This document shows positions 3,901 through 52,131 of a DNA stretch of 64,000 bases, one piece after another. Source of the stretch: Candidatus Omnitrophota bacterium. GTDB taxonomy: Bacteria > Omnitrophota > Gorgyraeia > Zapsychrales > Zapsychraceae. The position numbers were made by a program, and so were the translations under genes. The notes below the pieces were generated by a model. That model ran no database searches. It was not told the origin of the DNA and saw nothing but the letters and a program-made list of their open reading frames with translations. Each line of letters opens with the position of its first letter. Position 1 is the stretch's first letter. The stretch is from assembly GCA_029261055.1 (NCBI GenBank), contig JAJDCA010000066.1:157-64156 (forward strand), given 5' to 3'.

Positions 3901-3919
3901 ATAATAAAGGAGAAAACTA

Positions 3920-4315: not shown

Positions 4316-4328
4316 GAAAAGATATCAA

Positions 4329-12911: not shown

Positions 12912-13615
12912 TTCTCAAAGACATTTCATTTTCAACTCCTCACGAAAATATCGCCTATGATGATACCCTTTTGAAATTGGCTGAAGAAGGGCAAGAGGGA
13001 GAGGTTCTACGATTTTGGGAATCGCCCGAAATGTTCGTTGTCCTGGGACGTATTTCCAAAGAAGAAGAGGATGTCGATAAAGAAGCCGTTACACGCGATA
13101 ATATCCCCATTTTACGCCGCTCTTCAGGAGGAGGCACTGTTTTACAAGGCCCCGGATGCCTCAATTATACGTTAATCTTATCCAAAAAATGCCGCCCAGA
13201 AGTGGCTGATTTAAAAAAATCGTATCAATATATTCTTAATAAAATCATCGCCGCCTTAGAAACCCTGGGTGTAGAGGCCTTTTTTCACCCCATATCAGAC
13301 ATAACCGTAAACAGACCCCGGGGGTCTGTTTCAACGGTTCAAACCAAAACAGACCCCCGGGGTCTGTTTACGGTTCCATTAAAAATATCAGGAAACGCCC
13401 AAAAAAGAGGACGAAACTATATTTTGCATCATGGAACCATTCTGTATGACTTTAACCTTAAAAATATCGAAAAATATCTTAAAATACCTAAAAGCATACC
13501 CGAATATCGGGAAAAACGTCCTCATCTGGACTTTGTAACGAATATCGCACTTTCAGTCACAAGTCTTAAACAAGAGGTTCAAAAACAATTTGATCAATCT
13601 GATGAAAAAAATTGA
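12908..13615 (+). CDS. lipoate-protein ligase / octanoyltransferase family (BPL_LplA_LipB catalytic domain)
   Basis: 235 aa. RRSSGGGTVLQGPG and K-ISGNAQKR (catalytic Lys) motifs. Last gene of the gcv operon, overlapping the gcvPB stop. Contains an in-frame palindromic insertion (see repeat at 13305-13373). Confidence 0.7.
   Translation: MILKDISFSTPHENIAYDDTLLKLAEEGQEGEVLRFWESPEMFVVLGRISKEEEDVDKEAVTRDNIPILRRSSGGGTVLQGPGCLNYTLILSKKCRPEVADLKKSYQYILNKIIAALETLGVEAFFHPISDITVNRPRGSVSTVQTKTDPRGLFTVPLKISGNAQKRGRNYILHHGTILYDFNLKNIEKYLKIPKSIPEYREKRPHLDFVTNIALSVTSLKQEVQKQFDQSDEKN
13305..13373. repeat. 69-bp compound palindromic element inserted in frame inside the lipoate-ligase CDS
   Basis: ccgtaaacagaccccgggggtctgtttcaacggttcaaaccaaaacagacccccggggtctgtttacgg. 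The unit aaacagacccc|ggggtctgttt occurs twice and is self-complementary. 23 codons, no stop. Encodes NRPRGSVSTVQTKTDPRGLFTVP just before the catalytic K-ISGNAQ motif. Confidence 0.5.
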
Positions 13616-13989: not shown

Positions 13990-16900
13990 ATGCATATTTA
14001 CACAACAAAAAAACGATCAAATTTAATGTATCGAATCCTCTCAGCATTTATTGCAATAGTATTTTTAAGCACCACTATTGTGCCGCGAGGGTATACCCAA
14101 ACAGTGGTTTTACCAACAGCCACTATACTTAATTTACCTGTGCCGGGTACGATGGTAGGCATAACCGAAGGTTTTACACCTGCGATTATCAAAGGAATGA
14201 CGATTCATCCGGATAATCCTTTGGAATTTGATTTTATTGTGGGCCGCGGTGATAAAAATTTACAAGGAGATGATTTAAAAAAAGAAGGCATCAAAATAAT
14301 CAAATATTTTCTGGCTGCACTGACAACTCCTAAAGAGGACATGTGGGTAAACCTTTCCCCGTATGAAAAGAATCGTATTATTGCCGAAGGATTCGGACAA
14401 ACTGAAATGGGAGGAGATCTTTTATCTCAAGACTATCTTTTAAAACAGCTGACATCGTCATTAATGTATCCGGAAGATGAATTAGGCGGTGATTTTTGGG
14501 AAAAAGTGCATAAAAAAGCCTATGAACAGTTCGGAACAACCGATATTCCCATGAATACTTTTAATAAAATCTGGATTGTTCCAGAAAATGCCATGGTATA
14601 TGAGCATGAATCAAGCGCATTCGTAGTAGGCCGGCATTTAAAAGTGATGTTGGAGCAGGATTTTGTAGCTATGGATCATCAAAATTCTGGCATGCAAGGC
14701 ATAAAATTTGAGGTTACGACTGACAATATTGAACGAAAAAGCACGATAACTACGGAATTAATTCGTGAAATCCTTATCCCTGAGATTGAACGCGAGGTCA
14801 ATGAAGGTGAAAACTTTGCCAATTTACGTCAAATTTATAATTCTATGATTTTGGCTACATGGTATAAGCAAAACTTGAAAGAAAGTTTATTAGGACAAGT
14901 ATATATTGATAAAAATAAAATATTAGGCGTCGATGTGGAAGATAAAGATATCAAACATAAAATTTACAATCAATATATCCAGGCATTCAAAAAGGGCGTT
15001 TATAACTATATTAAGGAGGATTATGATTCTGTAACACATCAGGTCATTCCACGAAAATATTTTTCCGGAGGAACTTTATGGGTAAACGAAATTTCAGAAG
15101 TGGATAATTTAGAGGGCATTAACCTTAAACCTAAAATGATTCCTAATAAAACAGATGCTTCAATATTAACAAGTATTGTAGATGCAGGAGATGGTGCGGA
15201 TACGATTTATATTGAAGAAGTGATGAATCAATATGATGGCTCAATGTTAACCGTTCAGAGTGAGCTGGTTAGATTGAGAAATGATTTACCTTTAAATTTT
15301 TCTGGTAATTCGGATGAAATCATGGAAATTAAGAACTGGCCAAAGGTGGAACAGACAGTGAAAAACATCTCTGATGCTACCAAACAACTAATTCTTTTAT
15401 CAACAGTAAAAAATAACCTTTTTCGAGAATCAGTTCAAAAAGAAGTAGGTTTTATTTATGCCATTGCTTATTTCAGACAGCTTCTTCCGAATGATAAAAA
15501 GAAAGTTATAGAGGATTTTAATACATTGGGCCATAAGAATACTGCTGCGTGGTTAATGGAGAATAACAATTTGCATCTTGATGAATTAAAAGCCAAAATT
15601 CAGGACAAATTTGAAATTAATCTTAATCAAGAAACGGTAGAGTATATCAAAATGCATGATGAAACGGTGCGTCGATCAAGGGGGTTACGCTTAGCGGCAG
15701 ATTCTTTGAAAATATCTACCAGTGATCTTGATGTGATTTTCAAAAATCAAAGTTTGCTTGATGTTATTTTGGGATTACGCAAAGGAGCTGTTGTTGAAAT
15801 CCGACAACCTTTAAACAATTTAGAAAAAGTGCTACGACGGCTAAGATTGGCTGAAGGAGAGGCTATTCAATTTGTTCATCTTGGAAAAAATCAATATTAC
15901 GTCTATGAAGAACATCAGCTGAAACGGTTGGCGCAGGACAATGATTTAAATTATGGATTACACAGGAGTGGACTAAACCATTTGATCCAATTGGATATGG
16001 CAAAAAAACAAGGTATATTTTTTGAAGAAGCAAATAAAACAATTAATACAGATGCCCAAAAGAATATACATAGAATAAGCAGTTCCATCACTCTTTCAGA
16101 TACAAATAGAACTATGTATTTTGACGAAAAAGAAAAATTTTGGCGTGCTGATAAAACAGCCTCCCAGATTTTTGAAATTGAAAGAGTGGGAGCAGAACGA
16201 TCATATATTGCAACTATTCAAAGGGCAAAAGGATTTAAAAATGTTTTAGAATCCCAACTTGAAAATTTTTTAATATTTAATGTACAAACCCCAATCACCG
16301 TTATTGATGATTCTAACGAAACTGAACTTGAAATTAATATAAAGACAGTTAAAGAGTTTCAAAAAAAATATCAAATAGAAATTAAACATATAACAAAAAA
16401 AGAATGGGATGAAGAGTATGGATATTATGCAAAATATTTAAAGAAAACTTGGGAACAACAGCTAAATCAAGAAGTTTTACCTAACACTATTAAAGAATTT
16501 CTTTTAGAGACTGAAATTTTGCAAAAAAATATAATTAATGATGAAAAAATAGTCGAAGTCCTGCGTAGTCCAGAATTTTATCATACGTCCGGATTTCGAA
16601 ACAGACAATTTCTGATGGCTGTAGGGGAACCGATTATCCATGGATGGGATGACGATGCCCCTGCACATGTTTACGCGGTGACCGATAAAAAACGCGATCA
16701 ACTTCGCGAAGATGCCTTAAATGACAAAAAACCAATTATGCAGAACATGTTTCAAAAAGTTGGAAAAATGATTAACACAACCATTAAAAGTGAAAAAGCG
16801 TTCTATAAAGAACTCGCTAAGAACGATAATTATGACAACCCTAAAATCAAAGAGATTCTTGACAACTATTTTGGTTATGACCCCCAAGATGATCATAAAG

Positions 16901-18765
16901 GCTTAATTCCTCAAGCAGCAGAAGAAATAATTACATTGGAAAACAAAATGGATGGCATTAATCCTTATTCTGTCCAGAGGTATTCTCCTTTTATGCGAAA
17001 ATTCATTCCAAAACAAGCTCTTAGGATGGGAGACAATTATTCCCATAAACCTAGGATAAGTGATGATAAAGAAAATACATGTTGTATCATTATGCCGGCT
17101 AATCACCTGGGGCATTCCAGACGTGTTGGGCAAAGAATAGGGGATACTAATTTCTTCCTTGGGCAGGTTCCTTATAGGGGATTACTTAATACGCCTACAA
17201 ATAAAAATGAATCAAATGATTTAAAAGATCGCACTACCCATTTTCTGGGGCATGATTTTAATAATGACATCGATACGCAGGCCGGCAAACATTTGGAAGC
17301 TTATATTAATTCAGATGATCATCATATGAAACACATACAGCATACACATCAATCTGTTCTTTTGGTTGAGGGAGCTTTTGGTTTTGCTTCACTTCTTGGG
17401 TATCCTGTTTTTAATCGTAATTCAATGTTTGTGGGCGATTTTCCTCTGCCATCTTTGGGTGGACCGCTGCGTATTGAAGAACCCAAGATGTATCGATGGG
17501 TCGTCGGCCCATTGTTACTTAACACGGTAGCAGCTGCTAATGATAATATTGCAGGCGGACAAAAGCGTCATTTAGAAAATCGATTATATCGCAATTCTTA
17601 CCAAGACCTTACCGAAGTTGTGGGAGGGAACATTGCGGGTGATTTTTACGAAGCGGCCAAAGAGAAATATTACAAAATACTTCCAGAGAAATACAAAAAA
17701 GATTTATGGGGAGATTTATATAATCGACTTATCGTTTTAGCGAATGTTTTTCTTGAAGCTGGGACTGAAGTTAATTTAACAACCAAGCATAAAGAAAAGG
17801 CCTTAGAAGAACGTCAATTGAGAGCCCAATCCATTTCACGATTAGCATTAAAACGAAGCAAGAAAGTTATTAAATTAGAGAAAAATCCAGATGAAAATTT
17901 AAAACAGGAGATAAAAGATATTGATTTAATGATTCTCGACTATGCCGATCATTTTGGTTATTACGCTCCACAAAATACTAAAAATAAAAATTATAATCCG
18001 ATAAATCCTGAAGAAGATTATTTTTATAAAATCAAGGTTGATGGAAATTATTTAAAATGGCAAGCGGTATATCCTGATATGGAAGTCGCTGATCAGAATG
18101 GAGTTTCTTCAGTCAAGAGCAGTGAATGGAAAAATTTGCAAAAAAAATCAGGTGAAACCCGACTAAGTAATTGGGTAAAAGGAGAAACTATTTCTTTAGA
18201 AAATGGCCGGTCCATTCTTTTAGACGAACTGCCAGATAACGATATTGAAATAATTGTACCGGGCTTACGCTCCGACCTTGAAAAAGAATATTTAAAAGAA
18301 GTTCAACAAATTATTATAAAACAGCTTAAAGCCGATGGTAATCAAATGATTATCTGGCCAGATATGGTTGCAGCCGCTAAGCAAAGAAAAAAAGATTCCG
18401 CCATGGCAACAAAAAATGTAAAAAATAACCTTACTTTTAATACAAAACAGACTATAAATGAAGTCGGTGGTATCGATCTTAATCCTGATTTATTAAATTT
18501 ACAAATCAAACGTGATGGAAATGGCGTGCCGTTACCAGTAGCGATGCAGCCTATTGAAAATATGCATATTGAAGGGTTTTTCCCTATTATTATCAATATT
18601 ACACCTGTCAATCTTCCACTTCTTGGTTTTGGAGACACTCTTCCGAAAGAAAACTATCCCAAACCATCACCTGAACTCAGCTTTTGGGAAGAACAAGAGA
18701 GAAAAGCTTTTCTGAGAAGTAAATTAGGTGATAGAAATACACAACTAATACAAGAAAACACCTAA
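13990..18765 (+). CDS. giant secreted protein (1591 aa) with a conserved N-terminal domain of unknown function; paralog of 53880-57287
   Basis: Uninterrupted 4.8-kb ORF with a signal-peptide-like N-terminus (MYRILSAFIAIVFLSTTIV). The first ~350 aa are ~55-60% identical to the N-terminus of the 1135-aa protein at 53880 (LNLPVPGTMV...IKG...DPL.FDF; WVNLSPYE.NRII...GQTEMG.DLL.QDYLLKQLT.SLMYPE.ELG; IPRKYFSGG). The rest is unique and carries no domain I recognise. Confidence 0.7.
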   Translation: MHIYTTKKRSNLMYRILSAFIAIVFLSTTIVPRGYTQTVVLPTATILNLPVPGTMVGITEGFTPAIIKGMTIHPDNPLEFDFIVGRGDKNLQGDDLKKEGIKIIKYFLAALTTPKEDMWVNLSPYEKNRIIAEGFGQTEMGGDLLSQDYLLKQLTSSLMYPEDELGGDFWEKVHKKAYEQFGTTDIPMNTFNKIWIVPENAMVYEHESSAFVVGRHLKVMLEQDFVAMDHQNSGMQGIKFEVTTDNIERKSTITTELIREILIPEIEREVNEGENFANLRQIYNSMILATWYKQNLKESLLGQVYIDKNKILGVDVEDKDIKHKIYNQYIQAFKKGVYNYIKEDYDSVTHQVIPRKYFSGGTLWVNEISEVDNLEGINLKPKMIPNKTDASILTSIVDAGDGADTIYIEEVMNQYDGSMLTVQSELVRLRNDLPLNFSGNSDEIMEIKNWPKVEQTVKNISDATKQLILLSTVKNNLFRESVQKEVGFIYAIAYFRQLLPNDKKKVIEDFNTLGHKNTAAWLMENNNLHLDELKAKIQDKFEINLNQETVEYIKMHDETVRRSRGLRLAADSLKISTSDLDVIFKNQSLLDVILGLRKGAVVEIRQPLNNLEKVLRRLRLAEGEAIQFVHLGKNQYYVYEEHQLKRLAQDNDLNYGLHRSGLNHLIQLDMAKKQGIFFEEANKTINTDAQKNIHRISSSITLSDTNRTMYFDEKEKFWRADKTASQIFEIERVGAERSYIATIQRAKGFKNVLESQLENFLIFNVQTPITVIDDSNETELEINIKTVKEFQKKYQIEIKHITKKEWDEEYGYYAKYLKKTWEQQLNQEVLPNTIKEFLLETEILQKNIINDEKIVEVLRSPEFYHTSGFRNRQFLMAVGEPIIHGWDDDAPAHVYAVTDKKRDQLREDALNDKKPIMQNMFQKVGKMINTTIKSEKAFYKELAKNDNYDNPKIKEILDNYFGYDPQDDHKGLIPQAAEEIITLENKMDGINPYSVQRYSPFMRKFIPKQALRMGDNYSHKPRISDDKENTCCIIMPANHLGHSRRVGQRIGDTNFFLGQVPYRGLLNTPTNKNESNDLKDRTTHFLGHDFNNDIDTQAGKHLEAYINSDDHHMKHIQHTHQSVLLVEGAFGFASLLGYPVFNRNSMFVGDFPLPSLGGPLRIEEPKMYRWVVGPLLLNTVAAANDNIAGGQKRHLENRLYRNSYQDLTEVVGGNIAGDFYEAAKEKYYKILPEKYKKDLWGDLYNRLIVLANVFLEAGTEVNLTTKHKEKALEERQLRAQSISRLALKRSKKVIKLEKNPDENLKQEIKDIDLMILDYADHFGYYAPQNTKNKNYNPINPEEDYFYKIKVDGNYLKWQAVYPDMEVADQNGVSSVKSSEWKNLQKKSGETRLSNWVKGETISLENGRSILLDELPDNDIEIIVPGLRSDLEKEYLKEVQQIIIKQLKADGNQMIIWPDMVAAAKQRKKDSAMATKNVKNNLTFNTKQTINEVGGIDLNPDLLNLQIKRDGNGVPLPVAMQPIENMHIEGFFPIIINITPVNLPLLGFGDTLPKENYPKPSPELSFWEEQERKAFLRSKLGDRNTQLIQENT

Positions 18766-19687: not shown

Positions 19688-19744
19688 CGGTTGGATATTT
19701 CTGAACGTATCGTTCAGAATTACTCACCACACATTTCAGTAATA

Positions 19745-19797
19745 AAAAGCCTATCTCCCTTTGAAAAACAATTGACGAGATAGGCTTTTTATTTTAT
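19745..19797 (+). terminator. Rho-independent terminator after rpsI
   Basis: 13-bp stem aaaagcctatctc / gagataggctttt followed by a T-run. Confidence 0.55.
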
Positions 19798-19830
19798 TAT
19801 GATTTCTAATTATTTGTCGTGGAGGATTTT

Positions 19831-24045: not shown

Positions 24046-24973
24046 CTTAATGAGTTTACATGATTTATCATCCGACGAAATTCTGCATATTCTAGATCTT
24101 ACGCAAAAAATCAAAAATGATAAAACAATGGGGAAGGCAATTCTCAAAGACCAATCGATTGGTCTTGTATTCCAAAAACCATCCAACCGAACACGCGTAT
24201 CATTTGAAGTCGGTGTCACGCAGCTTGGCGGACATTGTTTGTACTTAGGGCCGGATGAAATTAATTTAGGTGTCCGTGAATCAACAGCTGACGTTTCCAA
24301 AACATTATCCCGGTATTTAAACGGTATTGTCGCTCGAACGCATACCCACCAGGATATTGAAGACCTTTGTCGTTATTCATCTGTCCCTGTAATTAACGGC
24401 CTGTCGGATTTATATCATCCTTGCCAGGCGTTAACTGATCTTTTTTCAATTAAAGAAAAATTTGAACAGATTAAAGGTTTAACTTTTGCTTATATCGGAG
24501 ATGGCAACAATGTCTGCCACTCCTTATTAATCGGATGTGCTAAAGTCGGCATTCATATAAATGTAGCAACACCCAAAGGATATGAACCTGACGAAGACGT
24601 TATCGAAACGGCTAAGACTTATGCAGAACAATCCGGCGTCAGCATTGATTTAAGCAACTCTCCCGAGGAAGCCGTTGGACAAGCCGATGTCATTTATACC
24701 GATGTTTGGGTCAGCATGGGACAGGAAAAAGAATCTGAAAAACGCTTAGCTGATTTTGATAATTTTCAAATCAACGAAAAACTCATGCAATTAGCCAACA
24801 ATAAACACATCTTCATGCACTGCCTGCCAGCTCACCGCGGCCAGGAAGTCACCGCAGAAGTGATCGACGGCCCCAATTCCATCGTCTTCGACCAAGCCGA
24901 AAACCGGTTACATACGCAAAAAGCAGTACTGATGTTTTTATTCCAAACACAAGAGACCTGTCAAACTGAATAA
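24035..24973 (+). CDS. argF: ornithine carbamoyltransferase
   Basis: 312 aa. STRTR carbamoyl-phosphate motif and HCLP ornithine-binding motif. Confidence 0.85.
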   Translation: MKRDLMSLHDLSSDEILHILDLTQKIKNDKTMGKAILKDQSIGLVFQKPSNRTRVSFEVGVTQLGGHCLYLGPDEINLGVRESTADVSKTLSRYLNGIVARTHTHQDIEDLCRYSSVPVINGLSDLYHPCQALTDLFSIKEKFEQIKGLTFAYIGDGNNVCHSLLIGCAKVGIHINVATPKGYEPDEDVIETAKTYAEQSGVSIDLSNSPEEAVGQADVIYTDVWVSMGQEKESEKRLADFDNFQINEKLMQLANNKHIFMHCLPAHRGQEVTAEVIDGPNSIVFDQAENRLHTQKAVLMFLFQTQETCQTE

Positions 24974-26310
24974 TGAAAGAATCTGAAACAACTGAACTTA
25001 AAAAGTCTACCGCTGAATTGAAAGATGCCGTTATTTCCATTGCAGCGATTCTCAATAAACATAGCCAGGGAGATATATATTTTGGGATAAAGGATAATGG
25101 GACTATCGTTGGACAGACGGTTGGTCGCCATACTATTAAAGAAGTCACGCAGACAATTGTGGACAATATTGAACCAAAAATTTATCCCAAAATTGAAGCA
25201 AAAAAAATCAAAGGCAAAGAGTGCGTCGTTGTAGAATTTCAAGGTTTGAACAGTCCCTATTTTGCTTATGGCCGGGCGTATATGCGCGTTGGAGAGTCTG
25301 ACAAACAACTAACTGTTAAGGAAATCGAAGAACAGATTGTGAAAAGAAAAAAATTTCTATGGGAAAGTGAGATTTCTAAGAAAACCTTGGAGGATGTTAA
25401 TGACGCAGCTATCCAAGAGTTTATGCGCAAAGCAAAAGAGGCTGGCCGGATTAATTTTGAGTTTACAAGCACGAAAGAGACACTTCGGAAACTTAGCTTG
25501 CTATCTGGAGATCAGTTAACAATGGCCGCCGAAATTTTGTTTTGCGATAACAGTCGTATGGAAATTCAGGCTGCTGTTTTTGCTACAGCAGTAAAGGCCA
25601 CTTTTCTTGATATCAGTAAATTTGAAGGAAATCTTTTTAGCCTGCGTAAACAGGCGGAAGCCTATGTCAAAGAGCACATGAAATGGCGAGCAGACATGAC
25701 TGGAAGTCGACGCAAAGAAATTCCAGAAATTCCCATACGAGCACTTTCCGAAGCAATTGGAAATTCATTGTGCCATCGGGATTATTCAAATCCAAAAGGT
25801 AATGAGGTTGCAATTTTCAAAGACCGAATTGAAATTTACAACCCAGGACAATTTCCAAATGAATTAGATCCGGATGATTTTATCAAAGGTGACGGATATT
25901 CTGTTTTACGTAATCCTTTGATTGCAGAAACAATGTACCGTTCTGAAGATATTGAAAAATGGGCGAGTGGCCTAAGACGGATTTACGATGAGTGTATGAC
26001 GAATCAGGTAAAGGTCGAGTTCAAAAGAGTTAAAACAGGATTTGTTGTGTGTTTTTATCGGCCTAAATGGGAAAACGGCGAAGGTTTAGAACAAAACATC
26101 CAGGAAGGTAAAGAGAAAAGTTCGGAGAAAAGTTCGGAGAAAATACTTCGCTTACTTAAAGAAAATAACACCATTTCTGCCCAAGAATTATCAGGATTAA
26201 TCGGAATAAGCTCCCGTGCCGTTGAAAAACATTTAGCCACATTGAAGAAATTAAACAAAATTAAACGTGTCGGCCCGGATAAGGGGGGGCATTGGGAAGC
26301 TGTGGAATAA
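24973..26310 (+). CDS. AlbA_2 (divergent AAA / Schlafen-like) plus HATPase_c_4/wHTH putative DNA-binding regulator (often mis-annotated as RecG-like)
   Basis: 445 aa. N-terminal ESETTELKKS...GDIYFGIKDNGTIVG (AlbA_2 core). Central IRALSEAIGNSLCHRDY (HATPase_c_4). C-terminal wHTH (ISAQELSGLIGISSRAVEKHLATLKKL). Its start overlaps the argF stop (TAATG). Confidence 0.6.
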   Translation: MKESETTELKKSTAELKDAVISIAAILNKHSQGDIYFGIKDNGTIVGQTVGRHTIKEVTQTIVDNIEPKIYPKIEAKKIKGKECVVVEFQGLNSPYFAYGRAYMRVGESDKQLTVKEIEEQIVKRKKFLWESEISKKTLEDVNDAAIQEFMRKAKEAGRINFEFTSTKETLRKLSLLSGDQLTMAAEILFCDNSRMEIQAAVFATAVKATFLDISKFEGNLFSLRKQAEAYVKEHMKWRADMTGSRRKEIPEIPIRALSEAIGNSLCHRDYSNPKGNEVAIFKDRIEIYNPGQFPNELDPDDFIKGDGYSVLRNPLIAETMYRSEDIEKWASGLRRIYDECMTNQVKVEFKRVKTGFVVCFYRPKWENGEGLEQNIQEGKEKSSEKSSEKILRLLKENNTISAQELSGLIGISSRAVEKHLATLKKLNKIKRVGPDKGGHWEAVE

Positions 26311-26403
26311 TATTTTCTTGATATTGCATCATAACTCCATCGAATTCGATGGGTTTAAAAATATATTAAATTCAAATATAAAAAACTCAGAACTTGCTAT
26401 TAC

Positions 26404-28494
26404 ATGAAAAACTTCATCTATACACTCTTATTTACCCTTAGCATCCTTTTATTTTGCCAAGCTGAGGCAGGTTTCACAAAAGTCACTTCATCAATGGATA
26501 CCAAAAAAACACCTATCCCGGCAGAAGAAATTATTCAAAAACTTATAAATACTTATGCGGTTATGGAAAACTATCAAAGTGAGGCCAAATATATAGGGCA
26601 GTTTGAAATCGATGGACAGATTGTAAAAACTGAAACGACTATGTTGATCAAATTAGGCAAGCCAAACTTATATCACATCAATTGGAAATCTCAGGAGAAC
26701 CAATTTGGCGAAAGCCCAGGAACAATTTGGAACGCCGGGAAAGGAGCATTTAAGTATACCGAATCAACAAATACTTATATCCAAATTTCAGAAATGCCAC
26801 AAGAATCATGTGAGATGAAAAATCAAAAAGAATGGTTGAATATAACAGAGCCATTGTTTGACATTTTCTTTAATTGCAACAATACCTCTTCAAAAATAAC
26901 ACAATTTAGATTAGTAGGAACAGATACGATCAACGGAGAAGACAACTACATCCTCCATCAAACCAATGATTCTTACAAACACACTTTATGGATTTCTAAA
27001 AAAGATTTCTTGATCAATAGGTATAAAAAAGAACCCCTGACAGAAGATTTAAGTATAGATGCCTTATCTGCAAGCCTGATAGATTCTTATGAAGATATGG
27101 GAATTGATCTTACTGAACAGGACAAATCAAAAATAAACAAATTTACGGGAATTTCTTATTTCTCATTAAATACAAGTGAATTTAAAAATATGCACATAGC
27201 ACTAAATTTTTATAATAATTTAATTGATGAAATAAAAGATAATAATGAATTCATATATTCTCTTCCTGAAAATGCTCAACTAAAATCATCTGAAAATATT
27301 ATTCCAAACAAAGAATCTATGCTACGCATACTAAAAAATCTAGATGGATTAAATTATACAATGTTATACACAAAAGGTCTTGAGCTTAGCGAAGAATCCG
27401 TAAGCGACCTCGAGAAAGAATTAGAAAACGATCCTTATAATTTTGAAATACGTTTGCAGATAATAGGGTATTACAGTGCTGATACTGACTCCGAAGAATA
27501 TCGCAGAATTAAAAATAAACACATTCTGTGGATTATTGAAAACCAACCGGATTATAAGGAAGGTAGTAGTATAATCTCTTCCCTATTTTATATTTTTCCT
27601 GACATTAATCCAAATGCCTATGATAAAGCCAAATCATTGTGGTTAAAACAAATTGAACTTCATAAAGATAATCCTGTTGTACTTACGAACGCATCTAAAT
27701 TTTTTTACCTTGTAGACAGTGAACTCTCAAAAGAAATTTTAAATATTGGAAAAAATATTGATCCAGATAATCTTTATTGGGAAGAAAGATTAAAATTCTT
27801 AAATTCATTAAATCCAAAAGATGGTATTCATAAAGAGTATTATGTCAACGGAAAATTAAAATTAGAGACAGAATATAAAGACGGCAAATACAATGGAATA
27901 TATAAAACATATTATGAAAGCGGCTCTTTAAAATTTGATGGAAATGTTAAAAATGGCGTTTATCACGGGATGGGAAAAAAGTATTATGAAAATGGACAAA
28001 TAAGTTTTATCGGGAATTTCAAAGAAGGAGCAAATGATGGTCTGTATAAATTTTTTCATGAAAGTGGTGAATTAATGCACACGTGTACGCAACAATTTAA
28101 AAAAGAAGGATTTACCCGAAAAGACTGCCAACAATATTCTTCAACAGGTGAAATAGAAAAAGAATATTATGCATTAATTTATAAACAGGATAAAGGTACT
28201 ACTCTGGAAAAAATATTTACAAACGATCATCTGTCTATTGAAAAAATCTATGATGAAAATGGGACTATTATAAAAGAAAAAGCATATACTAACGATGGGA
28301 AGCTAAAAGATGGCATTAATTATAACTACTATGATACTGGTAAAGTTCATTATGCACTAAATTACAAAAAGGGGATAAGAAAAGGTGTTAGTAAAGAGTA
28401 TTATGAAAACGGCAGCTTAAAAAAAGAAGTATCTTACACAAAGACGGCAAAAGAATTGGAATTTACAAAGAATTTTATGAAACTGGGGAAATAA
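26404..28494 (+). CDS. secreted MORN-variant (YwqK-like) repeat protein; apparent frameshift near 28436, with the repeat array continuing in another frame to 28583
   Basis: 696 aa. Signal peptide and a C-terminal array of YYENG.LK.E..YK.GK..G repeats. After the annotated stop, the +1 frame reads KDGKRIGIYKEFYETGEIKEEWSYKEGELIRKKKY...*, i.e. two further perfect MORN-variant repeats. Confidence 0.7.
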   Translation: MKNFIYTLLFTLSILLFCQAEAGFTKVTSSMDTKKTPIPAEEIIQKLINTYAVMENYQSEAKYIGQFEIDGQIVKTETTMLIKLGKPNLYHINWKSQENQFGESPGTIWNAGKGAFKYTESTNTYIQISEMPQESCEMKNQKEWLNITEPLFDIFFNCNNTSSKITQFRLVGTDTINGEDNYILHQTNDSYKHTLWISKKDFLINRYKKEPLTEDLSIDALSASLIDSYEDMGIDLTEQDKSKINKFTGISYFSLNTSEFKNMHIALNFYNNLIDEIKDNNEFIYSLPENAQLKSSENIIPNKESMLRILKNLDGLNYTMLYTKGLELSEESVSDLEKELENDPYNFEIRLQIIGYYSADTDSEEYRRIKNKHILWIIENQPDYKEGSSIISSLFYIFPDINPNAYDKAKSLWLKQIELHKDNPVVLTNASKFFYLVDSELSKEILNIGKNIDPDNLYWEERLKFLNSLNPKDGIHKEYYVNGKLKLETEYKDGKYNGIYKTYYESGSLKFDGNVKNGVYHGMGKKYYENGQISFIGNFKEGANDGLYKFFHESGELMHTCTQQFKKEGFTRKDCQQYSSTGEIEKEYYALIYKQDKGTTLEKIFTNDHLSIEKIYDENGTIIKEKAYTNDGKLKDGINYNYYDTGKVHYALNYKKGIRKGVSKEYYENGSLKKEVSYTKTAKELEFTKNFMKLGK

Positions 28495-28623: not shown

Positions 28624-29790
28624 ATGAAAAAAATTGTACTTGCTTACTCGGGGGGGTTAGATACCTCGTGTCTTATCAAATGGTTTGAGGAAAAAGGGTA
28701 TGATGTTATTGCCTTTATTGCGGATGTGGGGCAGGGGGAGGACTTTACTTCCATCAAAAAGCGTGCTCTGGCTACAGGAGCATCCAAGGTCTACTGTCTG
28801 AATTTACAAAAAGAGTTTGTGACGGATTATGTATTTCCGGCGCTTAAGGCTGGGGCGCTTTATGAAGAGAAATATAATTTAGCTTGCGCGTTATCTCGGC
28901 CATTGATTGCCAAGCATCTTGTGGACATTGCCCATAAAGAAAAGGCCCACGCAATTGCGCACGGGTGTACTGGTAAAGGTAACGATCAAGTACGATTTGA
29001 AGTGACCGCGCGTTTGATTGACCCTAAAATTGAAATTATCGCACCCGTGCGTTTTTGGGAGTTTAAAACACGGGACGAAGAAATTGAATATGCAAAATCT
29101 AAAAAAATTCCTGTGAGTGTAACCAAAAAAAGTCCGTACAGTATTGATGTCAATCTCTACGGCCGTGCGATTGAATGCGGTGTCTTAGAGGATCCTTGGC
29201 AAGAACCTCCGGAAGATATTTATGCGTTGACGGAAAACCCGATCAAGGCGCCTAATAAACCGACTTATGTCACCATTGATTTTGTGAAGGGTATTCCTCA
29301 AAAAATTGATGGCAAGGCGTATGCGCCTGTTACCTTAATCCAAAAACTGAATCAAATTGGTGGGAAAAATAGCGTCGGCCGTGTCGATATGGTAGAAAAC
29401 CGTTTGGTAGGTATTAAATCCCGTGAAATTTACGAAAATCCCGCTGGGACGATTCTTTACGCCGCTCTGCACGAATTAGAATGTTTAGTCTTAGACCGCG
29501 AAACTATGCGTTACAAACAAGCGGCCGCACAAAAGTATGCGGAGTTGACCTATAACGGTCTTTGGTGTATACCTTTAAAGACTCAATTGGATTCTTATTT
29601 TAACACAGTCCATAAAAACACCACCGGCACCGTTCGTCTAAAACTTTTCAAAGGAAATTGTACGGTCGCAGGACGTAAATCAAAATATTCGCGATACAAA
29701 GAAGAAATGGCAACCTACGGGGAAAAAGACATCTTCGACCAAAAACAATCCGAAGGCTTTGTCAAACTCTGGGGCATGCCTTTTGCATAA
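28624..29790 (+). CDS. argG: argininosuccinate synthase
   Basis: 388 aa. AYSGGLDTS PP-loop and the rest of the ArgG fold. Confidence 0.9.
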   Translation: MKKIVLAYSGGLDTSCLIKWFEEKGYDVIAFIADVGQGEDFTSIKKRALATGASKVYCLNLQKEFVTDYVFPALKAGALYEEKYNLACALSRPLIAKHLVDIAHKEKAHAIAHGCTGKGNDQVRFEVTARLIDPKIEIIAPVRFWEFKTRDEEIEYAKSKKIPVSVTKKSPYSIDVNLYGRAIECGVLEDPWQEPPEDIYALTENPIKAPNKPTYVTIDFVKGIPQKIDGKAYAPVTLIQKLNQIGGKNSVGRVDMVENRLVGIKSREIYENPAGTILYAALHELECLVLDRETMRYKQAAAQKYAELTYNGLWCIPLKTQLDSYFNTVHKNTTGTVRLKLFKGNCTVAGRKSKYSRYKEEMATYGEKDIFDQKQSEGFVKLWGMPFA

Positions 29791-29794: not shown

Positions 29795-29905
29795 AATAGA
29801 AGCAGAGAAGCAAAGAAGCAAAATGCAAAGAAAAAAACAACTAATCTAAACATTTTATCTCTCTGCCTCTTGCCGCTTTACACCTCTGCCTCTTTAAATT
29901 GGAGT
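29795..29905. repeat. GA-arm / CT-arm hairpin intergenic repeat, copy 1 (argG|argH spacer)
   Basis: aatagaagcagagaagcaaagaagcaaa...tctctgcctcttgccgctttacacctctgcctctttaaattgg. Related copies at 36301-36415 and 45291-45420. All three end in ctcttt(t)aaa just before the next gene. Confidence 0.5.
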
Positions 29906-29912: not shown

Positions 29913-31286
29913 ATGACAAAATTTTGGGGAAGTCGATTTGCTAAGAAAACAGATAGCCTCGCTGATCAATTTAGCTTTAGTATCAGCTATGATTATCGTT
30001 TAGCTATATATGATGTCCTGGGTAGCATTGCTCATGCCAATATGCTTGGCAAATGCAAAATCATCAGTAAAAAAGATGCTTCTGAAATTGTTTCAGGTTT
30101 GAAGAAAATAGGGAAGCAATTGGAAGAAGAGACCTTCAAATTTGATACTAAAGCCGAAGATATTCATACCAACATTCAATCAGCACTTAAAAAATTAATA
30201 GGGCCAGCGGCTGATAAACTGCATACGGCACGTTCCCGCAATGATCTTATTGCACTGGACATGAAATTATATTGTCTCGTCGAATTGACGATGATTATGG
30301 ATTTGATAGCTAAACTACAAAAATCTATCATCAAATTTGCGGATAAACATCAAGATGTTATTGTCCCGGCCTATACGCACCTTCAAGCCGCCCAAGTGGT
30401 TTTATTATCCCATCATATGCTGGCTTATGTCGAAATGCTTGACCGTGACAAAAATCGTTTGATGGATACACTCAACCGCACAGATGTTATGCCCTTGGGA
30501 AGTTGCGCCTTATCCGGAACATCGCTTGAAACGGACCGTGACTTTGTGACCAAAGAATTAGGCTTTTTAGCGACAACCCAAAATAGCATCGATTCTGTCA
30601 GCGACCGCGACTTTATTATTGAATCCTTATCGAATTTGGCAATGCTTGGCATACACGCGTCCCGTATCTCAGAAGATTTTATTATCTGGGCGACAAGTGA
30701 ATTTAATTTTATCAATATCGACTGGTCCTTATGTACAGGGTCATCCATAATGCCGCACAAAAAGAATCCGGATATTTTAGAATTAGTCCGTGGAGAGACG
30801 GCCAAGCTCTGCAGCAATTTAAATGAAATATTAATTTTGATGAAAGGTCTACCGTTGACATATAACCGTGATATGCAACTGGACAAACCGCCACTTTTTG
30901 AATCTGTGGAAAAATCAAAAGAGATATTACAACTATTGTCGTCATTGTTTACAGGACTTAAGGTCAATAAAAAAGTCCTCAAAGAACGTATCAACGATGA
31001 ATCATTTTTTTCTGTCGACATTATGGAATACTTAATCAAAAAAGGTATTTCTTACCGCGAAGCGCATGATATCGTTGGAACAATGATCAAAGAATGCGTT
31101 GATAAAGGAAACAAAATTGCAGACTTAAGCAAAGAAGAATTAAAAAAGTATTGCCCAAAGTTCGATACTGATGTAAAAGAACTGCTTAATCCGGAGACGT
31201 CAGTAAAAATGAAAAAATCTCTCGGGTCAACGAATCCTCAAATGGTTAAAAAACAGATTGAGGGATGGAAGAAAAAATTGTTGTAA
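29913..31286 (+). CDS. argH: argininosuccinate lyase
   Basis: 457 aa. Fumarase/aspartase family with the GSS.MPHKKNPD signature. Confidence 0.9.
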   Translation: MTKFWGSRFAKKTDSLADQFSFSISYDYRLAIYDVLGSIAHANMLGKCKIISKKDASEIVSGLKKIGKQLEEETFKFDTKAEDIHTNIQSALKKLIGPAADKLHTARSRNDLIALDMKLYCLVELTMIMDLIAKLQKSIIKFADKHQDVIVPAYTHLQAAQVVLLSHHMLAYVEMLDRDKNRLMDTLNRTDVMPLGSCALSGTSLETDRDFVTKELGFLATTQNSIDSVSDRDFIIESLSNLAMLGIHASRISEDFIIWATSEFNFINIDWSLCTGSSIMPHKKNPDILELVRGETAKLCSNLNEILILMKGLPLTYNRDMQLDKPPLFESVEKSKEILQLLSSLFTGLKVNKKVLKERINDESFFSVDIMEYLIKKGISYREAHDIVGTMIKECVDKGNKIADLSKEELKKYCPKFDTDVKELLNPETSVKMKKSLGSTNPQMVKKQIEGWKKKLL

Positions 31287-35037: not shown

Positions 35038-35044
35038 GCCGCTT

Positions 35045-35105
35045 TCAGCCATCAGTCATCAGTAAAAAAATACTGAAGTCTGATAGCTGACGACTGATGA
35101 CTATT
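35045..35105. repeat. GACTGA/CATCAG-rich palindromic intergenic element, copy 2 (dapB|dapL spacer)
   Basis: gctttcagccatcagtcatcagt...actgaagtctgatagctgacgactgatgact. Shares ctgatagctgacgactga with the copy at 2212-2277. Confidence 0.4.
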
Positions 35106-35125
35106 AAGAAAGGATTCAAAGATCT

Positions 35126-36292
35126 ATGTCAATTTCCATCGAATTTTCCGAACGATTAAAAAATTTACCACCATACCTTTTTGTTGCCATCGATAAAGCC
35201 AAAAGAGCTGCTATGGCTGAAGGACGGGATGTTATTAATCTTGGTATCGGTGATCCGGATTCTGGAACCCCACAACATATTATTGATGCCCTTAAACAAG
35301 CGGTTGAAGATTCAGCGAATCATCATTATGCTTTGGATTCTGGCTTACCAGAATTAAGAAAAGAAATTGCTATCTGGTTTCAAAACCGCTTTCAAGTATC
35401 TCTGGATATTGATTCAGAAATATATCCTCTCATCGGAACTAAGGAAGGGTTGGCCCATTTACCTTTAGGCATTATTAACCCTAAAGACAAAGTGCTTCTT
35501 ACAGATCCAGCTTACCCAGCATACCGGCCTTCCATTGAATTTGCCGGAGGAAAAATCGTTAATATCCCTTTAAAAGCTAATCGTGGATTTTTACCAGATC
35601 TAGAAAAGATTGAAAAAATGAGGGATGTTAAAATGTTGGTGATTAACTACCCCAACAATCCAACCGCCACAACAGCAACCAAAGAATTCTACACAGACTT
35701 AGTAAAACTCGCTCAAGAAAAAGAATTTATCATTGTCTCAGATATGGCCTATTCAGAAGTTTATTACGATGGAGAAAAACCTCTTAGCATCCTGGAAATT
35801 GATGGGGCAAAGGATGTTGCCATAGAATTTCATTCTTTATCTAAGACATATTACATGACTGGCTGGCGTATTGGATGGGCTTGTGGTAATCCAACGCTTG
35901 TGGCAGCTCTGGCTAAAGTCAAATCAAACTTTGATTCTGGTATTTTTCAAGCAATTCAAGTGGCTGGTATTGCAGCCTTAAAAAGTGATCCTCAAATCAC
36001 TGAAGACATGCGCACACTTTATCAAGATAGACGCGATTATCTTGTAAATGGACTAAGAGGCATCGGGTGGAAAGTGCCCGCACCTCAAGCCGCTTTCTAT
36101 GTTTGGGCTAAAATTCCAAAAGGATTTTCCAGCTCTATGGAAACCTCAAAAGCATTTTTGGACAAAGCCGATATCGTGGCTACCCCTGGAAATGGATTTG
36201 GAGAGGCAGGGGAGGGTTACATTCGCATGGCGCTTACTGTTTCAAAAGACCGAATTAATGAAGCCGTAGAAAGATTACGAAAGGTTTTGTAG
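35126..36292 (+). CDS. LL-diaminopimelate aminotransferase-type class-I aminotransferase (DapL-like)
   Basis: 388 aa fold-type-I aminotransferase (NLGIGDPD, SKTYYMTGWRIGW). Sits directly after dapFAB, and no dapD/dapC/dapE is present, which is consistent with the DapL route. Confidence 0.65.
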   Translation: MSISIEFSERLKNLPPYLFVAIDKAKRAAMAEGRDVINLGIGDPDSGTPQHIIDALKQAVEDSANHHYALDSGLPELRKEIAIWFQNRFQVSLDIDSEIYPLIGTKEGLAHLPLGIINPKDKVLLTDPAYPAYRPSIEFAGGKIVNIPLKANRGFLPDLEKIEKMRDVKMLVINYPNNPTATTATKEFYTDLVKLAQEKEFIIVSDMAYSEVYYDGEKPLSILEIDGAKDVAIEFHSLSKTYYMTGWRIGWACGNPTLVAALAKVKSNFDSGIFQAIQVAGIAALKSDPQITEDMRTLYQDRRDYLVNGLRGIGWKVPAPQAAFYVWAKIPKGFSSSMETSKAFLDKADIVATPGNGFGEAGEGYIRMALTVSKDRINEAVERLRKVL

Positions 36293-36300
36293 TCTATTTA

Positions 36301-36415
36301 AATATAGAAGCAAGATGCATAGAGGTAAGAGGCAGAGAATAAAAACATTAGTTAGCTTTATTTTTTGCTTTGCTTCTTGTGTCTCTATTTCTCTGCTTCT
36401 TTAAATAGGAAGGAA
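36301..36415. repeat. GA-arm / CT-arm hairpin intergenic repeat, copy 2 (dapL|folK spacer)
   Basis: aatatagaagcaagatgcatagaggtaagaggcagagaat...ttttttgctttgcttcttgtgtctctatttctctgcttctttaaatagg. The two arms are reverse complements of each other. Confidence 0.5.
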
Positions 36416-36420: not shown

Positions 36421-36852
36421 TTGGAAACCGTTTACCTTGGGTTGGGTTCCAATATGGGAAATCGTCAAGAAAACATCAAAAAATCCTTAGAACTTTTAGA
36501 AAACAATTTGATCAAAATTCTAAAATGCGCAACGATTATTGAAACCGATCCCGTAGGAGGACCTAAACAGGATAAATACCTCAACACAGTTGCCGAGGCT
36601 AAAACCTCATTGTCCCCACAAGATTTACTTACACAACTCCATCAAATCGAGAAACAACTCGGTCGTATTCGAACCATCAAAAATGGACCACGTCCTATTG
36701 ATATCGATATTCTTCTTTATGGAAATATAAATATACAAACACCTCAACTTACTATTCCACATCCGCGCATGCTGAAACGCGATTTTGTGATGATCCCACT
36801 TAAAGAAATTTCTCCTAAAACGGTAGAGGCATTGCTCCATGCGCGTCATTAA
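36421..36852 (+). CDS. folK: 2-amino-4-hydroxy-6-hydroxymethyldihydropteridine pyrophosphokinase
   Basis: 143 aa. VYLGLGSNMGNR N-terminus and PRPIDIDILLYG motifs of HPPK. Apparent TTG start. Confidence 0.8.
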   Translation: METVYLGLGSNMGNRQENIKKSLELLENNLIKILKCATIIETDPVGGPKQDKYLNTVAEAKTSLSPQDLLTQLHQIEKQLGRIRTIKNGPRPIDIDILLYGNINIQTPQLTIPHPRMLKRDFVMIPLKEISPKTVEALLHARH

Positions 36853-38659: not shown

Positions 38660-39088
38660 ATGGCCAAGAAAGTTGCAAAAGTTGGTATAAAAAAAGAGAG
38701 TGGATATCTTTATTTTGTCGACAAAGCTGGTGATATTTCTTGTGCAAAGATGGCCCGTGGCAACAAAAAAGGGGGTAAACCCAAAAAAGTTGCAAAAGTC
38801 GGTATAGAAAAAGAATCAGGATTTCTTTACTTCATCGACAAAAACGGAGATATCTCCTGCGCTAAGATGGTTCGTGGTGGAAAGAAAAAGAAAGCCACTA
38901 AGAAAAAAGCCGCTAAGAAGACAACGAAGAAAAAAGTAGTTAAAAAAGCAACAAAGAAAACAGCAACAAAAAAAACAGCTACTAAGAAAAAAGCTGTCAA
39001 AAAAGCTGTAACAAAGAAAAAAGCAACAAAGAAAACAGCTACTAAAAAAAAAGCTACTAAGAAAAAAGCAACAAAAAAAAGAAAATAA
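38660..39088 (+). CDS. lysine-rich histone H1-like basic protein with a duplicated ~35-aa N-terminal module
   Basis: 142 aa. Two copies of KKVAKVGI.KESG.LYF.DK.GDISCAKM.RG, followed by a K/A/T-rich tail (KKKATKKKAAKKTTKKK...). Strong RBS AAAGGAGG. Confidence 0.6.
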   Translation: MAKKVAKVGIKKESGYLYFVDKAGDISCAKMARGNKKGGKPKKVAKVGIEKESGFLYFIDKNGDISCAKMVRGGKKKKATKKKAAKKTTKKKVVKKATKKTATKKTATKKKAVKKAVTKKKATKKTATKKKATKKKATKKRK

Positions 39089-39128
39089 ACCATTTCAAAC
39101 GGCCCTCGTATACTTCGATCTGTTCGAC

Positions 39129-43541: not shown

Positions 43542-45287
43542 ATGCCAAAAACAACTAAAAAAGCCCCTGTAAAGAAAAAAACAGCAACCAAAAAAGTAGT
43601 CACTAAAAAAGCCCCCTTAAAACCAAAAAAGAAAGTCGGTTTAAAAACACGATTCAAGGTTAACCCCAAAAAAAGTATTGGAAAACTCCCTAAACTACGA
43701 AAAATTAAGGGACGCGTCAGTGCTACAGTAAAAATCAAAAAAATACGACACAAAGATGTTATGTTAATCCTTGATTTTGGTTCCCAATATACCCAACTCA
43801 TCGCTCGTCGCATTCGAGAAAATAAAGTTTATAGTAAAATTGTACCTTATACTATTAGCCCCGATGAAATCCGAGAACTAAATCCAAAAGGAATTATTCT
43901 TTCCGGAGGCCCTTTAAGTGTTTATGACAAAAATGCACCGACCCCTTCCAAAGAAATATTTAAAATGGGGATTCCAATTCTCGGCATCTGTTATGGTATG
44001 CAGATTATAACTGAAATTTTTGGTGGTAAAGTTAAATCAAGCAACGAAAGAGAGTTTGGACGCGCTGAACTATTTGTCGACAGCAATAAAGATCTTTTTA
44101 CAAATCTTCCATCTAATTTAACCAGCTGGATGAGCCACAGTGATGAAATTAAAAAAATTCCTACAGGCTTCGTCAAACTCGCGCATACACTTAATGCCCC
44201 TGTTGCTGCTTTTGCTAACCGTGCAAAGAAAATTTATGGTGTACAATTTCACCCGGAAGTTGTTCATACTCAACGTGGTGTTCAAGTCTTAACCAACTTT
44301 GTTTTTCATATTTGTGGATGTCTCCCTCGATGGACAATGGATAAATTCATCAATGCTTCCATTAAACAAATCAAAGAAAAAGTTGGCACCAAAAAAGTTA
44401 TTCTTGGTTTAAGTGGTGGGGTTGACTCTGCTGTAGCTGCTGCCATGATTCATAAGGCTATTGGAAAAAGACTATATTGTGTTTTTATCGACAATGGACT
44501 GTTACGAAAAAATGAACTGACCTCCGTCCAAAAAACATTTAAAACAAATTTAAACATGAATTTAACATGTGTCAGTGCCGAAAAAGGATTTTTAACCCGG
44601 CTAGAAAATATCACCGACCCTGAAGAAAAAAGAAAAATTATCGGGGATGAATTCATAAAAGTTTTCCAAAATAAATCTAAAAGAATTAAGAATGCTTCTT
44701 TTCTGGCCCAAGGCACACTTTATCCAGATGTTATAGAATCCCATTCTCCGACAGGAGGGCCATCGGCTGTCATTAAAAGCCATCACAATGTTGGAGGACT
44801 CCCTAAAAACCTTAAGTTTGAACTTATCGAACCTTTGCGCGAACTTTTCAAAGATGAAGTCCGTGCGATTGGAAAGCGCCTTGACCTCCCGGAAAACATC
44901 CTTAAGCGACAGCCATTTCCTGGACCTGGACTTGCTATTCGTATCATTGGTGCGGTAACCCCAGAACGCCTGGAAATACTTAGAGAAGCCGATGAACGCG
45001 TACTTGATGAAATCAAAAAAGCCGGCCTGTATAATGAGATTTGGCAGTCTTTTGCGGTATTACTTCCTATAAAAACTGTTGGCGTTATGGGAGACCAAAG
45101 AACCTATGAAAATGTTATCGCCATCAGATGTGTAAACAGTCAGGATGGCATGACGGCAGACTGGGTACAATTGCCACACGAAATTCTTGGAAAAATATCT
45201 AACCGCATTATTAATGAAGTCAACGGTGTTAACCGTGTCGTTTACGATATAAGCTCTAAGCCTCCCGCAACGATTGAATGGGAGTAA
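43542..45287 (+). CDS. guaA: GMP synthase (glutamine-hydrolysing), with ~70 in-frame K-rich codons ahead of the conserved GATase start (possible N-terminal extension)
   Basis: GATase region [19 protein letters not shown]...GICYGMQ, ATP-PPase region GLSGGVDS and a conserved C-terminal dimerisation domain. The first ~70 codons are [18 protein letters not shown]... Confidence 0.9.
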
Positions 45288-45290
45288 TTA

Positions 45291-45420
45291 ATAGAAATAA
45301 AGAAGCAGAGAAGCAAGAGACAGAGAAGCAGAGAAAAACCTTTGTTTCTCTGTGCCTTTGCCTCTTACTTCTCGTAATATCTCTACCTCTTGCATCTCTA
45401 CTTCTTGCCTCTTTTTAAAA
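45291..45420. repeat. GA-arm / CT-arm hairpin intergenic repeat, copy 3 (guaA|dnaE spacer)
   Basis: aatagaaataaagaagcagagaagcaagagacagagaagcagagaaaaa...tctctgtgcctttgcctcttacttctcg...cttgcctctttttaaaat. Confidence 0.5.
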
Positions 45421-51552: not shown

Positions 51553-51643
51553 CGAATGAATAAACAAAGAGTATAGTGCAAACAATTAGGAATTGAAAAA
51601 AATAATTTACACATATTTAATAAAAAACCTCGTCGATTCAACT

Positions 51644-51723
51644 GAATCTCCTCGGGGCAAGCCTCGGGAAATTAGACCCTTTTGGAATTTCTTTAAAACT
51701 AGAAATTCCTAATTAAATTAAAC
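51644..51723 (+). promoter_or_regulatory. conserved leader element, copy B, within a ~320-nt 5' leader
   Basis: gaatctcctcggggcaagcctcgggaaattag, then hairpin ggaatttct/agaaattcc (51684-51709), then taattaaattaaac. Confidence 0.4.
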
Positions 51724-51874
51724 GATGATTTTATTTCTTTCCAATTGCTTGAGTAAAAGTTTTTACTTTAACCATCCTGAAATTTTAATTAACCATTTTC
51801 GTGTTCAACCTACTTTTAAACATTATCAAAATTCCTACACGCTTAGCTTTATTTAAAAGGGAGGGGAAAAATCA

Positions 51875-52105: not shown

Positions 52106-52131
52106 ACACCCTTATTTAGATATCTGCATCA

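Follow-up and report, generated by a model that had tools for sequence, protein, structure and literature searches.

Three spacers between co-directional genes of the window, by which we mean the whole 64-kb stretch of DNA that was analyzed, are nearly filled by long imperfect palindromes. These probably represent one dispersed repeat, similar to REPINs, MITEs and STRRs, that resides in tolerant intercistronic spacers. An earlier note on this DNA had as its core claim the presence of a hairpin repeat family in the spacers between cistrons, and this is borne out here. The window has a G+C content of 38%, and its plus strand carries nearly all of the long ORFs. The best named matches of its ArgG all come from Candidatus Omnitrophota/Omnitrophica, a phylum known almost only from metagenomes, and a Logan contig (SRR15505515) matches 13.7 kb of the window without any difference.

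Anatomy and relatedness of the three copies

Copy 1 (29798..29893) is located between argG (28624-29790, stop codon at 29788-90) and argH (29913-31286, ATG at 29913). Copy 2 (36293..36409) is found between the gene of a DapL-type aminotransferase (35126-36292, stop codon at 36290-92) and folK (36421-36852, TTG start at 36421), and copy 3 (45288..45418) between guaA (43542-45287, stop codon at 45285-87) and dnaE (45422-48856), the ATG of which, at 45422, comes 4 nt past the end of the element. The products of the flanking genes were identified through Pfam as ArgG, ArgH, a DapL-type aminotransferase, HPPK (FolK), GMP synthase and the DNA polymerase III alpha subunit. The palindromes begin 0-7 nt past the stop codon and finish 4-12 nt ahead of the start codon. 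The three hairpins lie, within a few bases, where the earlier note had put them, after a stop codon and before the ribosome-binding site or start of the following gene.

All three copies share one layout when read on the plus strand, with a purine-rich arm, a short A/T-rich center and a pyrimidine-rich arm that is followed by TTTAAAT or something similar. The elements are non-coding imperfect palindromes of ca. 100-125 bp, and their arms are made of tandem 7-8-nt units, of the AGAAGCAG/AGAGGCA type in the purine-rich arm and of its complement in the other. The purine-rich arm of copy 1 (29798..29836, plus strand, as for all the arms given here) contains tandem AGAAGCAG/AGAAGCAA units (TRF period 8, 4.5 copies, 29798-29832), and its pyrimidine-rich arm (29858..29893) reads TCTCTGCCTCTTGCC...CTCTGCCTCTT, after which come TTTAAAT and the ribosome-binding site of argH, GGAG. 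Copy 2 has TTTAAATA on either side (36297-36304 and 36400-36407); its purine-rich arm (36304..36342) is built from 7+8-nt units, ATAGAAGCAAGATGCATAGAGGTAAGAGGCAGAGAA (TRF period 15, 2.4 copies, 36304-36339), and its pyrimidine-rich arm (36358..36402) reads TTATTTTTTGCTTTGCTTCTTGTGTCTCTATTTCTCTGCTTCTTT. Finally, copy 3 has a purine-rich arm (45293..45338) with tandem AGAAGCAG units (TRF period 8, 4.5 copies, 45301-45335) that is shorter than the pyrimidine-rich one (45345..45412), which carries the 7+8-nt units ATCTCTACCTCTTGC (TRF period 15, 2.3 copies, 45379-45412). Unequal arm lengths, which are as expected from replication slippage, were found in copy 3 and also in two metagenomic elements described below (L125 and L127).

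Pairs of copies have 14-17 8-mers in common, and their longest common words are 12-16 nt, compared with a mean of <1 and a maximum of 7-10 shared 8-mers in 1000 shuffles that kept the composition of each arm. The core 15-mer AGAAGCAGAGAAGCA, allowing for <=3 mismatches, had 10 matches where 1.6 were expected, and 9 of the 10 were inside the three elements. The word ATTAGTT, which is not of low complexity, is common to the loops of copy 1 and copy 2. A covariance model (A3, R1) was built from the three window copies plus the two metagenomic relatives and run with filters off; over the 64-kb window it recovered exactly the three copies, with 100-107 bits, the next match being an unrelated perfect palindrome with 27 bits. 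That the similarity might reflect nothing but simple GA/CT low complexity had been raised in the earlier note itself, and it fails by the shuffles, the 15-mer count and the covariance model alike. The arms are certainly simple in composition, and signal-peptide coding can weakly mimic the pattern, as happens in an ordinary signal-peptide coding region (L073) that scored 36 bits. However, the arm-preserving shuffles never matched the observed word sharing and nothing else in the window exceeded 27 bits, so that a chance resemblance of GA-rich/CT-rich spacers is effectively refuted.

A local and independent origin of each hairpin, by in-place slippage of GA-rich units together with fold-back or template-switch copying, the resemblance being due to convergence, seems improbable to us. 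Tandem arms with variable unit numbers and unequal lengths would be expected from it, and hairpins of comparable build but different units are found at the dapB/dapL spacer of the window (unit CATCAGT) and in a Nitrospirota genome (built from AGGCACAG). However, words of 12-16 nt, orientation-specific differences between the arms (GAGGCA versus TGCTTC) and the loop word ATTAGTT go beyond generic slippage, and no GA-rich seed was found in the spacers of the relatives. It should be noted that a shared slippage-prone unit could still supply part of the similarity between copies, which we have counted against the dispersed repeat, and that the presence of only three copies, with a column identity of ca. 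69%, counts against calling the transposition recent.

Orientation, folding and strand polarity

The two arms are not exact complements (GAGGCA is found in one and TGCTTC in the other), and thus, the orientation of each element is visible. Copy 2 is inverted with respect to copies 1 and 3, which the earlier note had missed, as indicated by inverted-repeat pairs (I1 and I7) and by 8-mer sharing: copy 2 has 17 8-mers in common with copy 1 as reverse complement and 6 in the forward sense, and 14 and 5, respectively, with copy 3. The strand of each element that folds better (hereafter strand X) corresponds to the minus strand in copy 1, antisense to the operon, the plus (sense) strand in copy 2 and the minus strand in copy 3, which has the orientation of copy 1. 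The covariance model gave 102.7 bits on the minus and 57.6 on the plus strand of copy 1, 107 on the plus and 62.5 on the minus strand of copy 2, and 99.7 on the minus and 59.1 on the plus strand of copy 3.

RNA folding, a check proposed in the earlier note, gave z-scores of -4.4 to -5.9 for the better strand across the three copies. The minimum free energy of copy 1 was -45.1 kcal/mol (z -5.5) on the minus and -22.0 (z -1.5) on the plus strand; copy 2 had -39.3 kcal/mol (z -4.4) on the plus and -29.3 on the minus strand, and copy 3 -52.8 kcal/mol (z -5.9) on the minus and -45.6 (z -6.7) on the plus strand. On the mRNA strand, copies 2 and 3 fold well and copy 1 is at the level of shuffled sequences (z -1.5). 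The stems are A/U-rich, with 35-47 pairs, and are followed by UUUAAAU; that of copy 1 is closed by the outer pair 29893:29798 and has 42 pairs, 10 of them G.U.

Strand X has 10, 8 and 7 G.U pairs in the three copies (25 in total) and no A.C mismatches, counts that are to be taken as non-independent events, coming from repeated units and related copies. Since the arms are not exact complements, each transition mismatch between them appears as G.U on strand X and as A.C on the other; the remaining 1x1 mismatches of the three copies are T/T, C/T, G/A and C/C. The energy gap between strand X and the other strand is smaller with DNA than with RNA parameters. This polarity goes with the orientation of the element, whichever chromosome strand it is on, which excludes mutation bias at the present sites as an explanation, and it is weak or absent in three of the similar elements from other genomes (L044, L125 and L088). 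As judged from the sequences, the one-strand G.U pattern is suggestive only, either of inheritance from the source copy or repeated unit or of selection on a single-stranded form.

The same polarity would be expected if the elements provided a strand-specific product or site, such as a small or antisense RNA, an array of 8-nt protein sites or a BIME-like DNA-structure site (for nucleoid proteins or gyrase). The 25 G.U pairs versus 0 A.C mismatches on one strand, the larger gap with RNA than with DNA parameters and the regular 8-nt period of the arms would all agree with such a role. Nevertheless, we consider it very improbable, given that neither an associated promoter-like site nor a small ORF or loop conserved across the copies was found, that L125, L088 and L044 show little or no polarity, that conservation in relatives is lacking and that there is no known binding protein. 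No predicted promoter-like site coincided with the elements, and the TTG...TAAAT seen by eye in the pyrimidine-rich arms has spacers of 19-20 nt, so the promoter reading was rejected. A small ORF or type I toxin on strand X was also discarded: the loop contains an ATG in copy 1 only, and not in copies 2 and 3 or in L127. At the Rfam gathering threshold, the window had matches to two tRNAs only and none to the elements; in E-value mode, the elements gave far-sub-threshold matches, mostly on strand X and mostly to eukaryotic miRNA-precursor models, i.e., generic long hairpins.

Distribution in relatives and in other genomes

We compared the spacers with those of relatives at 77-81% ArgG identity, which come from three environments (loci L115; L116 to L118; and L119 and L120) and have kept the gene order argC-J-B-D-F-G-H, lysA, dapF-A-B, dapL, folK and panC. 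No members of the family were found at argG/argH and dapL/folK in L115 to L119. The argG/argH spacer is 14 bp long in L116/L118, 53 bp in L119 and 157 bp in L115, with unrelated A/T hairpins, while the dapL/folK spacer has 34 bp in L116/L118, 32 bp in L115 and 187 bp in L119, with unrelated hairpins that are richer in G+C. The covariance model did not detect any copy in ca. 110 kb of DNA from these ArgG relatives either. Their absence at these two of the three spacers indicates that the elements are additions of the window lineage and not conserved parts of the operon, with the proviso that the nearest relatives are distant (ca. 80% amino acid identity), so that insertion is not formally separable from loss in all of them. 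Incidentally, argF and argG are adjacent in every relative examined, and the window has two extra genes between them (24973-28494), the first with SLFN AlbA_2, HATPase_c_4 and HTH domains (24973-26310) and the second with DUF2092 and MORN_2 (26404-28494).

These data bear on the possibility that the elements are functional intercistronic RNAs, under selection as transcription terminators or attenuators, as RNase III targets or as barriers to exonucleases, with segmental mRNA stability and differential expression as the outcome. Both effects have been proposed for the REP sequences of malEFG and for the STRR hairpins of the hupS/hupL spacer. All three elements are placed exactly between co-directional cistrons and leave the downstream ribosome-binding site free, L125 and L127 are placed likewise, the mRNA-strand hairpins of copies 2 and 3 are strong (-39 and -46 kcal/mol, z -4.4 and -6.7), and STRR hairpins offer a precedent (PMC2670836). 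However, the elements are not conserved at argG/argH and dapL/folK in the relatives, and neither is the L127 copy at rny/ymdB; the sense strand of copy 1 does not fold better than shuffles (z -1.5), and the orientation is mixed. With this balance, we regard a selected RNA function as rather unlikely, and the structured RNA for differential expression offered by the earlier note is not supported, given the lack of conservation and the poor folding of the copy 1 mRNA strand.

The intrinsic terminator or attenuator, which had also been put forward, fares no better. A terminator scan of the plus strand had no match at the three sites, its sole match being the inner hairpin of copy 3 on the minus strand. 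The terminator located 3' of rpsI (19740-19800), AAAAAGCCUAUCUC...GAGAUAGGCUUUUUAUUUU, has the canonical intrinsic structure with a compact GC stem and a U-run, and its sequence is conserved in L115 and L116, so we used it as a reference for the terminators of this lineage. The long A/U-rich stems with UUUAAAU, devoid of a sense-strand prediction or U-tract, do not resemble it, they are absent in the relatives, and the terminator was discarded. Besides, only 4 nt separate the end of copy 3 from the dnaE ATG, and efficient termination there would leave this essential gene without a promoter, with no room for a new one, and strong termination would be lethal. For a dispersed repeat, survivorship is the simplest explanation of why the elements fit so exactly after a stop codon and ahead of a ribosome-binding site, given that the spacers of the ancestor measured only 14-34 bp and an insert would be tolerated nowhere else. 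Based on the predicted folding, a side effect of copies 2 and 3 on the mRNA, by RNase III cleavage or 3'-end protection, is plausible; the best reading is that any such effect would be incidental and not the reason for the presence of the element.

We screened other genomes for similar elements. The pattern GAAGCAGAGAA-N40-65-TGCCTCTT matched at least ca. 113 loci in a genome collection, nearly all of them single chance matches, and the real look-alikes among the matches listed were L037, L042, L044 and L088, with a weak one in L016. With a tighter pattern, seven loci were recovered from metagenomes, two of them real (L125 and L127). The 19 matches in viral contigs were all due to chance, none being recognized by the covariance model, and a phage link was therefore dropped. 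The L127 element occupies the rny/ymdB spacer of a contig with 49% G+C, the RNase Y of which shares 91% identity with a named protein from Omnitrophica. The equivalent loci of six relatives (RNase Y identity of 87-91%) have rny/ymdB spacers of 26-97 bp that lack the element, and no copy was found in ca. 87 kb of DNA from L127 relatives. L125 comes from a groundwater contig, probably also of a member of Omnitrophota, where it separates two ketoacyl-synthase genes, and L088 comes from a MAG named Omnitrophota. L042 and L044 belong to a single Melainabacteria MAG (MFRM01), and L037 is a more distant look-alike. The sharing of 8-mers between genomes reaches the level found within the window and is specific for orientation (26 versus 2 for copy 3 and L088; 22 versus 9 for copy 1 and L125). 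Hence, of the “genome-specific” family of the earlier note, the exclusivity has to be given up, since similar elements are present in L127, L088 and probably L125 among Omnitrophota and in L042/L044 among Melainabacteria. Judging by these comparisons, the family looks sporadic, wider than the window genome and recently gained where present.

An analogous intergenic hairpin between co-directional genes appeared in a Nitrospirota MAG (L075, 3501-3636), built from a different octamer (AGGCACAG/AGGCACAA) and with almost no words in common with the other elements. From this case, tandem-unit hairpins would seem to form a wider class.

In the Melainabacteria MAG, the octamer-array hairpin is within the 5' end of ORFs (L044, 3478-3610, and L042, 1863-1975) and is translated as a signal peptide, the purine-rich and pyrimidine-rich arms being read as a basic n-region and a hydrophobic h-region. 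The leader in L044 reads MRKRSRETEKQRSRESSFFVSLPLCFFASLLLASLPLISFLLTGC, with a lipobox, and belongs to a Peripla_BP_6 protein, the domain of which begins at residue 55, compared to residue 31 in the adjacent paralogue. A protein search with this element-encoded leader peptide gave zero candidates. A bolder proposal, which we take as a long shot, is that of an undescribed hairpin element that crosses phyla (Omnitrophota and Melainabacteria), propagates through a fixed-polarity single-stranded intermediate, which would account for the G.U pairs being all on one strand in either insertion orientation, and is co-opted, when located at the 5' end of a gene, as a ready-made signal peptide. The signal-peptide part is based on these two ORFs of one genome (a Peripla_BP_6 lipoprotein at 3478-4665 in L044, and 1863-2549 in L042). 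None of the window ORFs has an element-like 5' end, and such a use inside the window was rejected.

Affinities with known repeats and other features of the window

The closest elements in build are the short tandemly repeated repetitive (STRR) sequences of cyanobacteria, such as those of the hupS/hupL spacer in Nostoc and Anabaena, where 7-bp tandem units form stem-loops; they have no known function, and a contribution to the stability of transcripts or to the coupling of translation has been suggested (PMC2670836). As in STRRs, the hairpins found here are multi-copy, have arms made of short tandem units arranged as inverted arrays and are located in the spacers between co-transcribed genes. 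However, STRR units have 7 bp and belong to filamentous cyanobacteria, and ours are 7-8-nt units of the AGAAGCAG type, with TRF periods of 8 and 15, in Omnitrophota. The STRR heptamers are CCCCAGT, TTGGTCA and CAACAGT, from which the units of the window (AGAAGCAG and ATCTCTACCTCTTGC) differ. The sole tie to the cyanobacterial lineage is the presence of look-alikes in one Melainabacteria MAG.

REPINs provide the precedent for dispersal (PMC3116915) and are the closest in presumed biology, being extragenic imperfect hairpins of ca. 100 nt, found in either orientation and with a patchy distribution. They are thought to be non-autonomous mobile DNA, with a structure that is relevant in single-stranded DNA or mRNA. 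Each arm of a REPIN includes a REP, a short palindrome in its own right that often bears a GTAG or CGTC tag (PMC3733652). In contrast, the arms of the window elements are homopurine/homopyrimidine and do not pair with themselves, neither GTAG nor CGTC was seen by eye at their ends, and no RAYT was seen: among the 30 window proteins scanned, no transposase or RAYT domains and no insertion sequence were found.

Bacterial MITEs include Correia/NEMIS, RUP and Nezha. The elements described here are similarly small and non-coding, with inverted termini (AGAAGCA...TGC(C/T)TCT at the ends, with outer TTTAA/TTAAA), located at intergenic A/T-rich sites and present in some lineages and absent in others, as seen at argG/argH, dapL/folK and rny/ymdB, always by comparison with distant relatives (77-91% amino acid identity). 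The difference is that here the whole element is one hairpin and not a core with terminal repeats around it, and that no partner insertion sequence with matching ends was found in the window. Candidate target-site duplications flank the elements, AATTG in copy 1, TTTAAATA in copy 2 and TTAA in copy 3 and L125, but they are ambiguous, being of unequal lengths, A/T-rich and partly palindromic, with relatives too diverged to provide the empty site. Rickettsia palindromic elements (RPE) are palindromic repeats that can be translated inside genes, and the signal peptides of the Melainabacteria look-alikes are reminiscent of them; however, the three copies in the window are strictly intergenic, and there is no sequence relation. 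By analogy, we class the element as one that works like the REPIN, MITE and STRR families and is not a member of any of them.

Of the options considered in the earlier note, a MITE-like element fits best, in view of the absence from the spacers of relatives, the presence of both orientations and the patchy distribution among lineages. The family would have entered very short A/T-rich spacers, in either orientation, after the split from relatives in which they measure 14-53 bp. It may be selfish or neutral DNA that depends for its spread to new sites on an enzyme from another part of the genome and that would persist only where an insert of ca. 100 bp is harmless, in the gap that separates a stop codon from the ribosome-binding site after it, and the length of the arms would change through replication slippage. 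Once inserted, it would add an imperfect hairpin of 35-47 pairs to a polycistronic mRNA, which might incidentally serve as an RNase III site or as a barrier to exonucleases. The G.U pairs of one strand could point to a step of its propagation in which the element is single-stranded, as RNA or DNA, and always of the same polarity, or to selection on such a form.

A full-text search with the 15-mer retrieved no paper, and nothing specific was found on repeats in Omnitrophota. If our interpretation is correct, this would be, to our knowledge, the first dispersed palindromic repeat family described for the phylum, and it would extend the tandem-unit hairpin of the cyanobacterial STRR type to other phyla. 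It would also provide a marker for strain typing and for checks of assembly quality, a handle to find the mobilizing enzyme and a warning to annotators that these spacers are not regulators conserved with their operons. The finding alone leaves the knowledge of gene regulation or mobile DNA unchanged.

Other repeats were found in the window. The dapB/dapL spacer (35038-35125) contains an unrelated tandem-unit hairpin made of CATCAGT/TCAGTCA heptamers with a period of 7, and thus, the same operon bears two different short-unit hairpins. A motif of ca. 45 nt, TCTCCYCGGGGCAAGCCTCGRGRAATTARAYCC, is present at 3823-3865 and 51647-51689, in the long non-coding spacers 3189-4328 and 51553-52131, and there is a perfect palindrome with 24-nt arms at 4072-4119; neither the motif nor this palindrome had a match in Rfam. 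Two large ORFs (13990-18765 and 53880-57287) had no Pfam match, and another one, at 58182-64000, has more than 1,900 residues and a signal-peptide-like start (MKIKYLAVACLLLVAFTTSPHSFA) and continues past the end of the window. GuaA has a lysine-rich N-terminal extension of ca. 70 residues (43542-43760) encoded by a 15-nt repeat of the KKAxxKK type, and the same type of repeat builds the C-terminal tail (38873-39094) of a small histone-H1-like ORF (38660-39088), the N-terminal part of which has an internal duplication of 117 nt. Finally, an ORF similar to the LplA/LipB lipoate ligases (12908-13615) includes an in-frame perfect palindrome at 13303-13375, with 29-nt arms (AACCGTAAACAGACCCCGGGGGTCTGTTT...), that encodes TVNRPRGSVSTVQTKTDPRGLFTVP just ahead of the KISGNAQ motif. 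The Pfam match spans the palindrome, which could be an RPE-like in-frame insertion or an assembly artifact.
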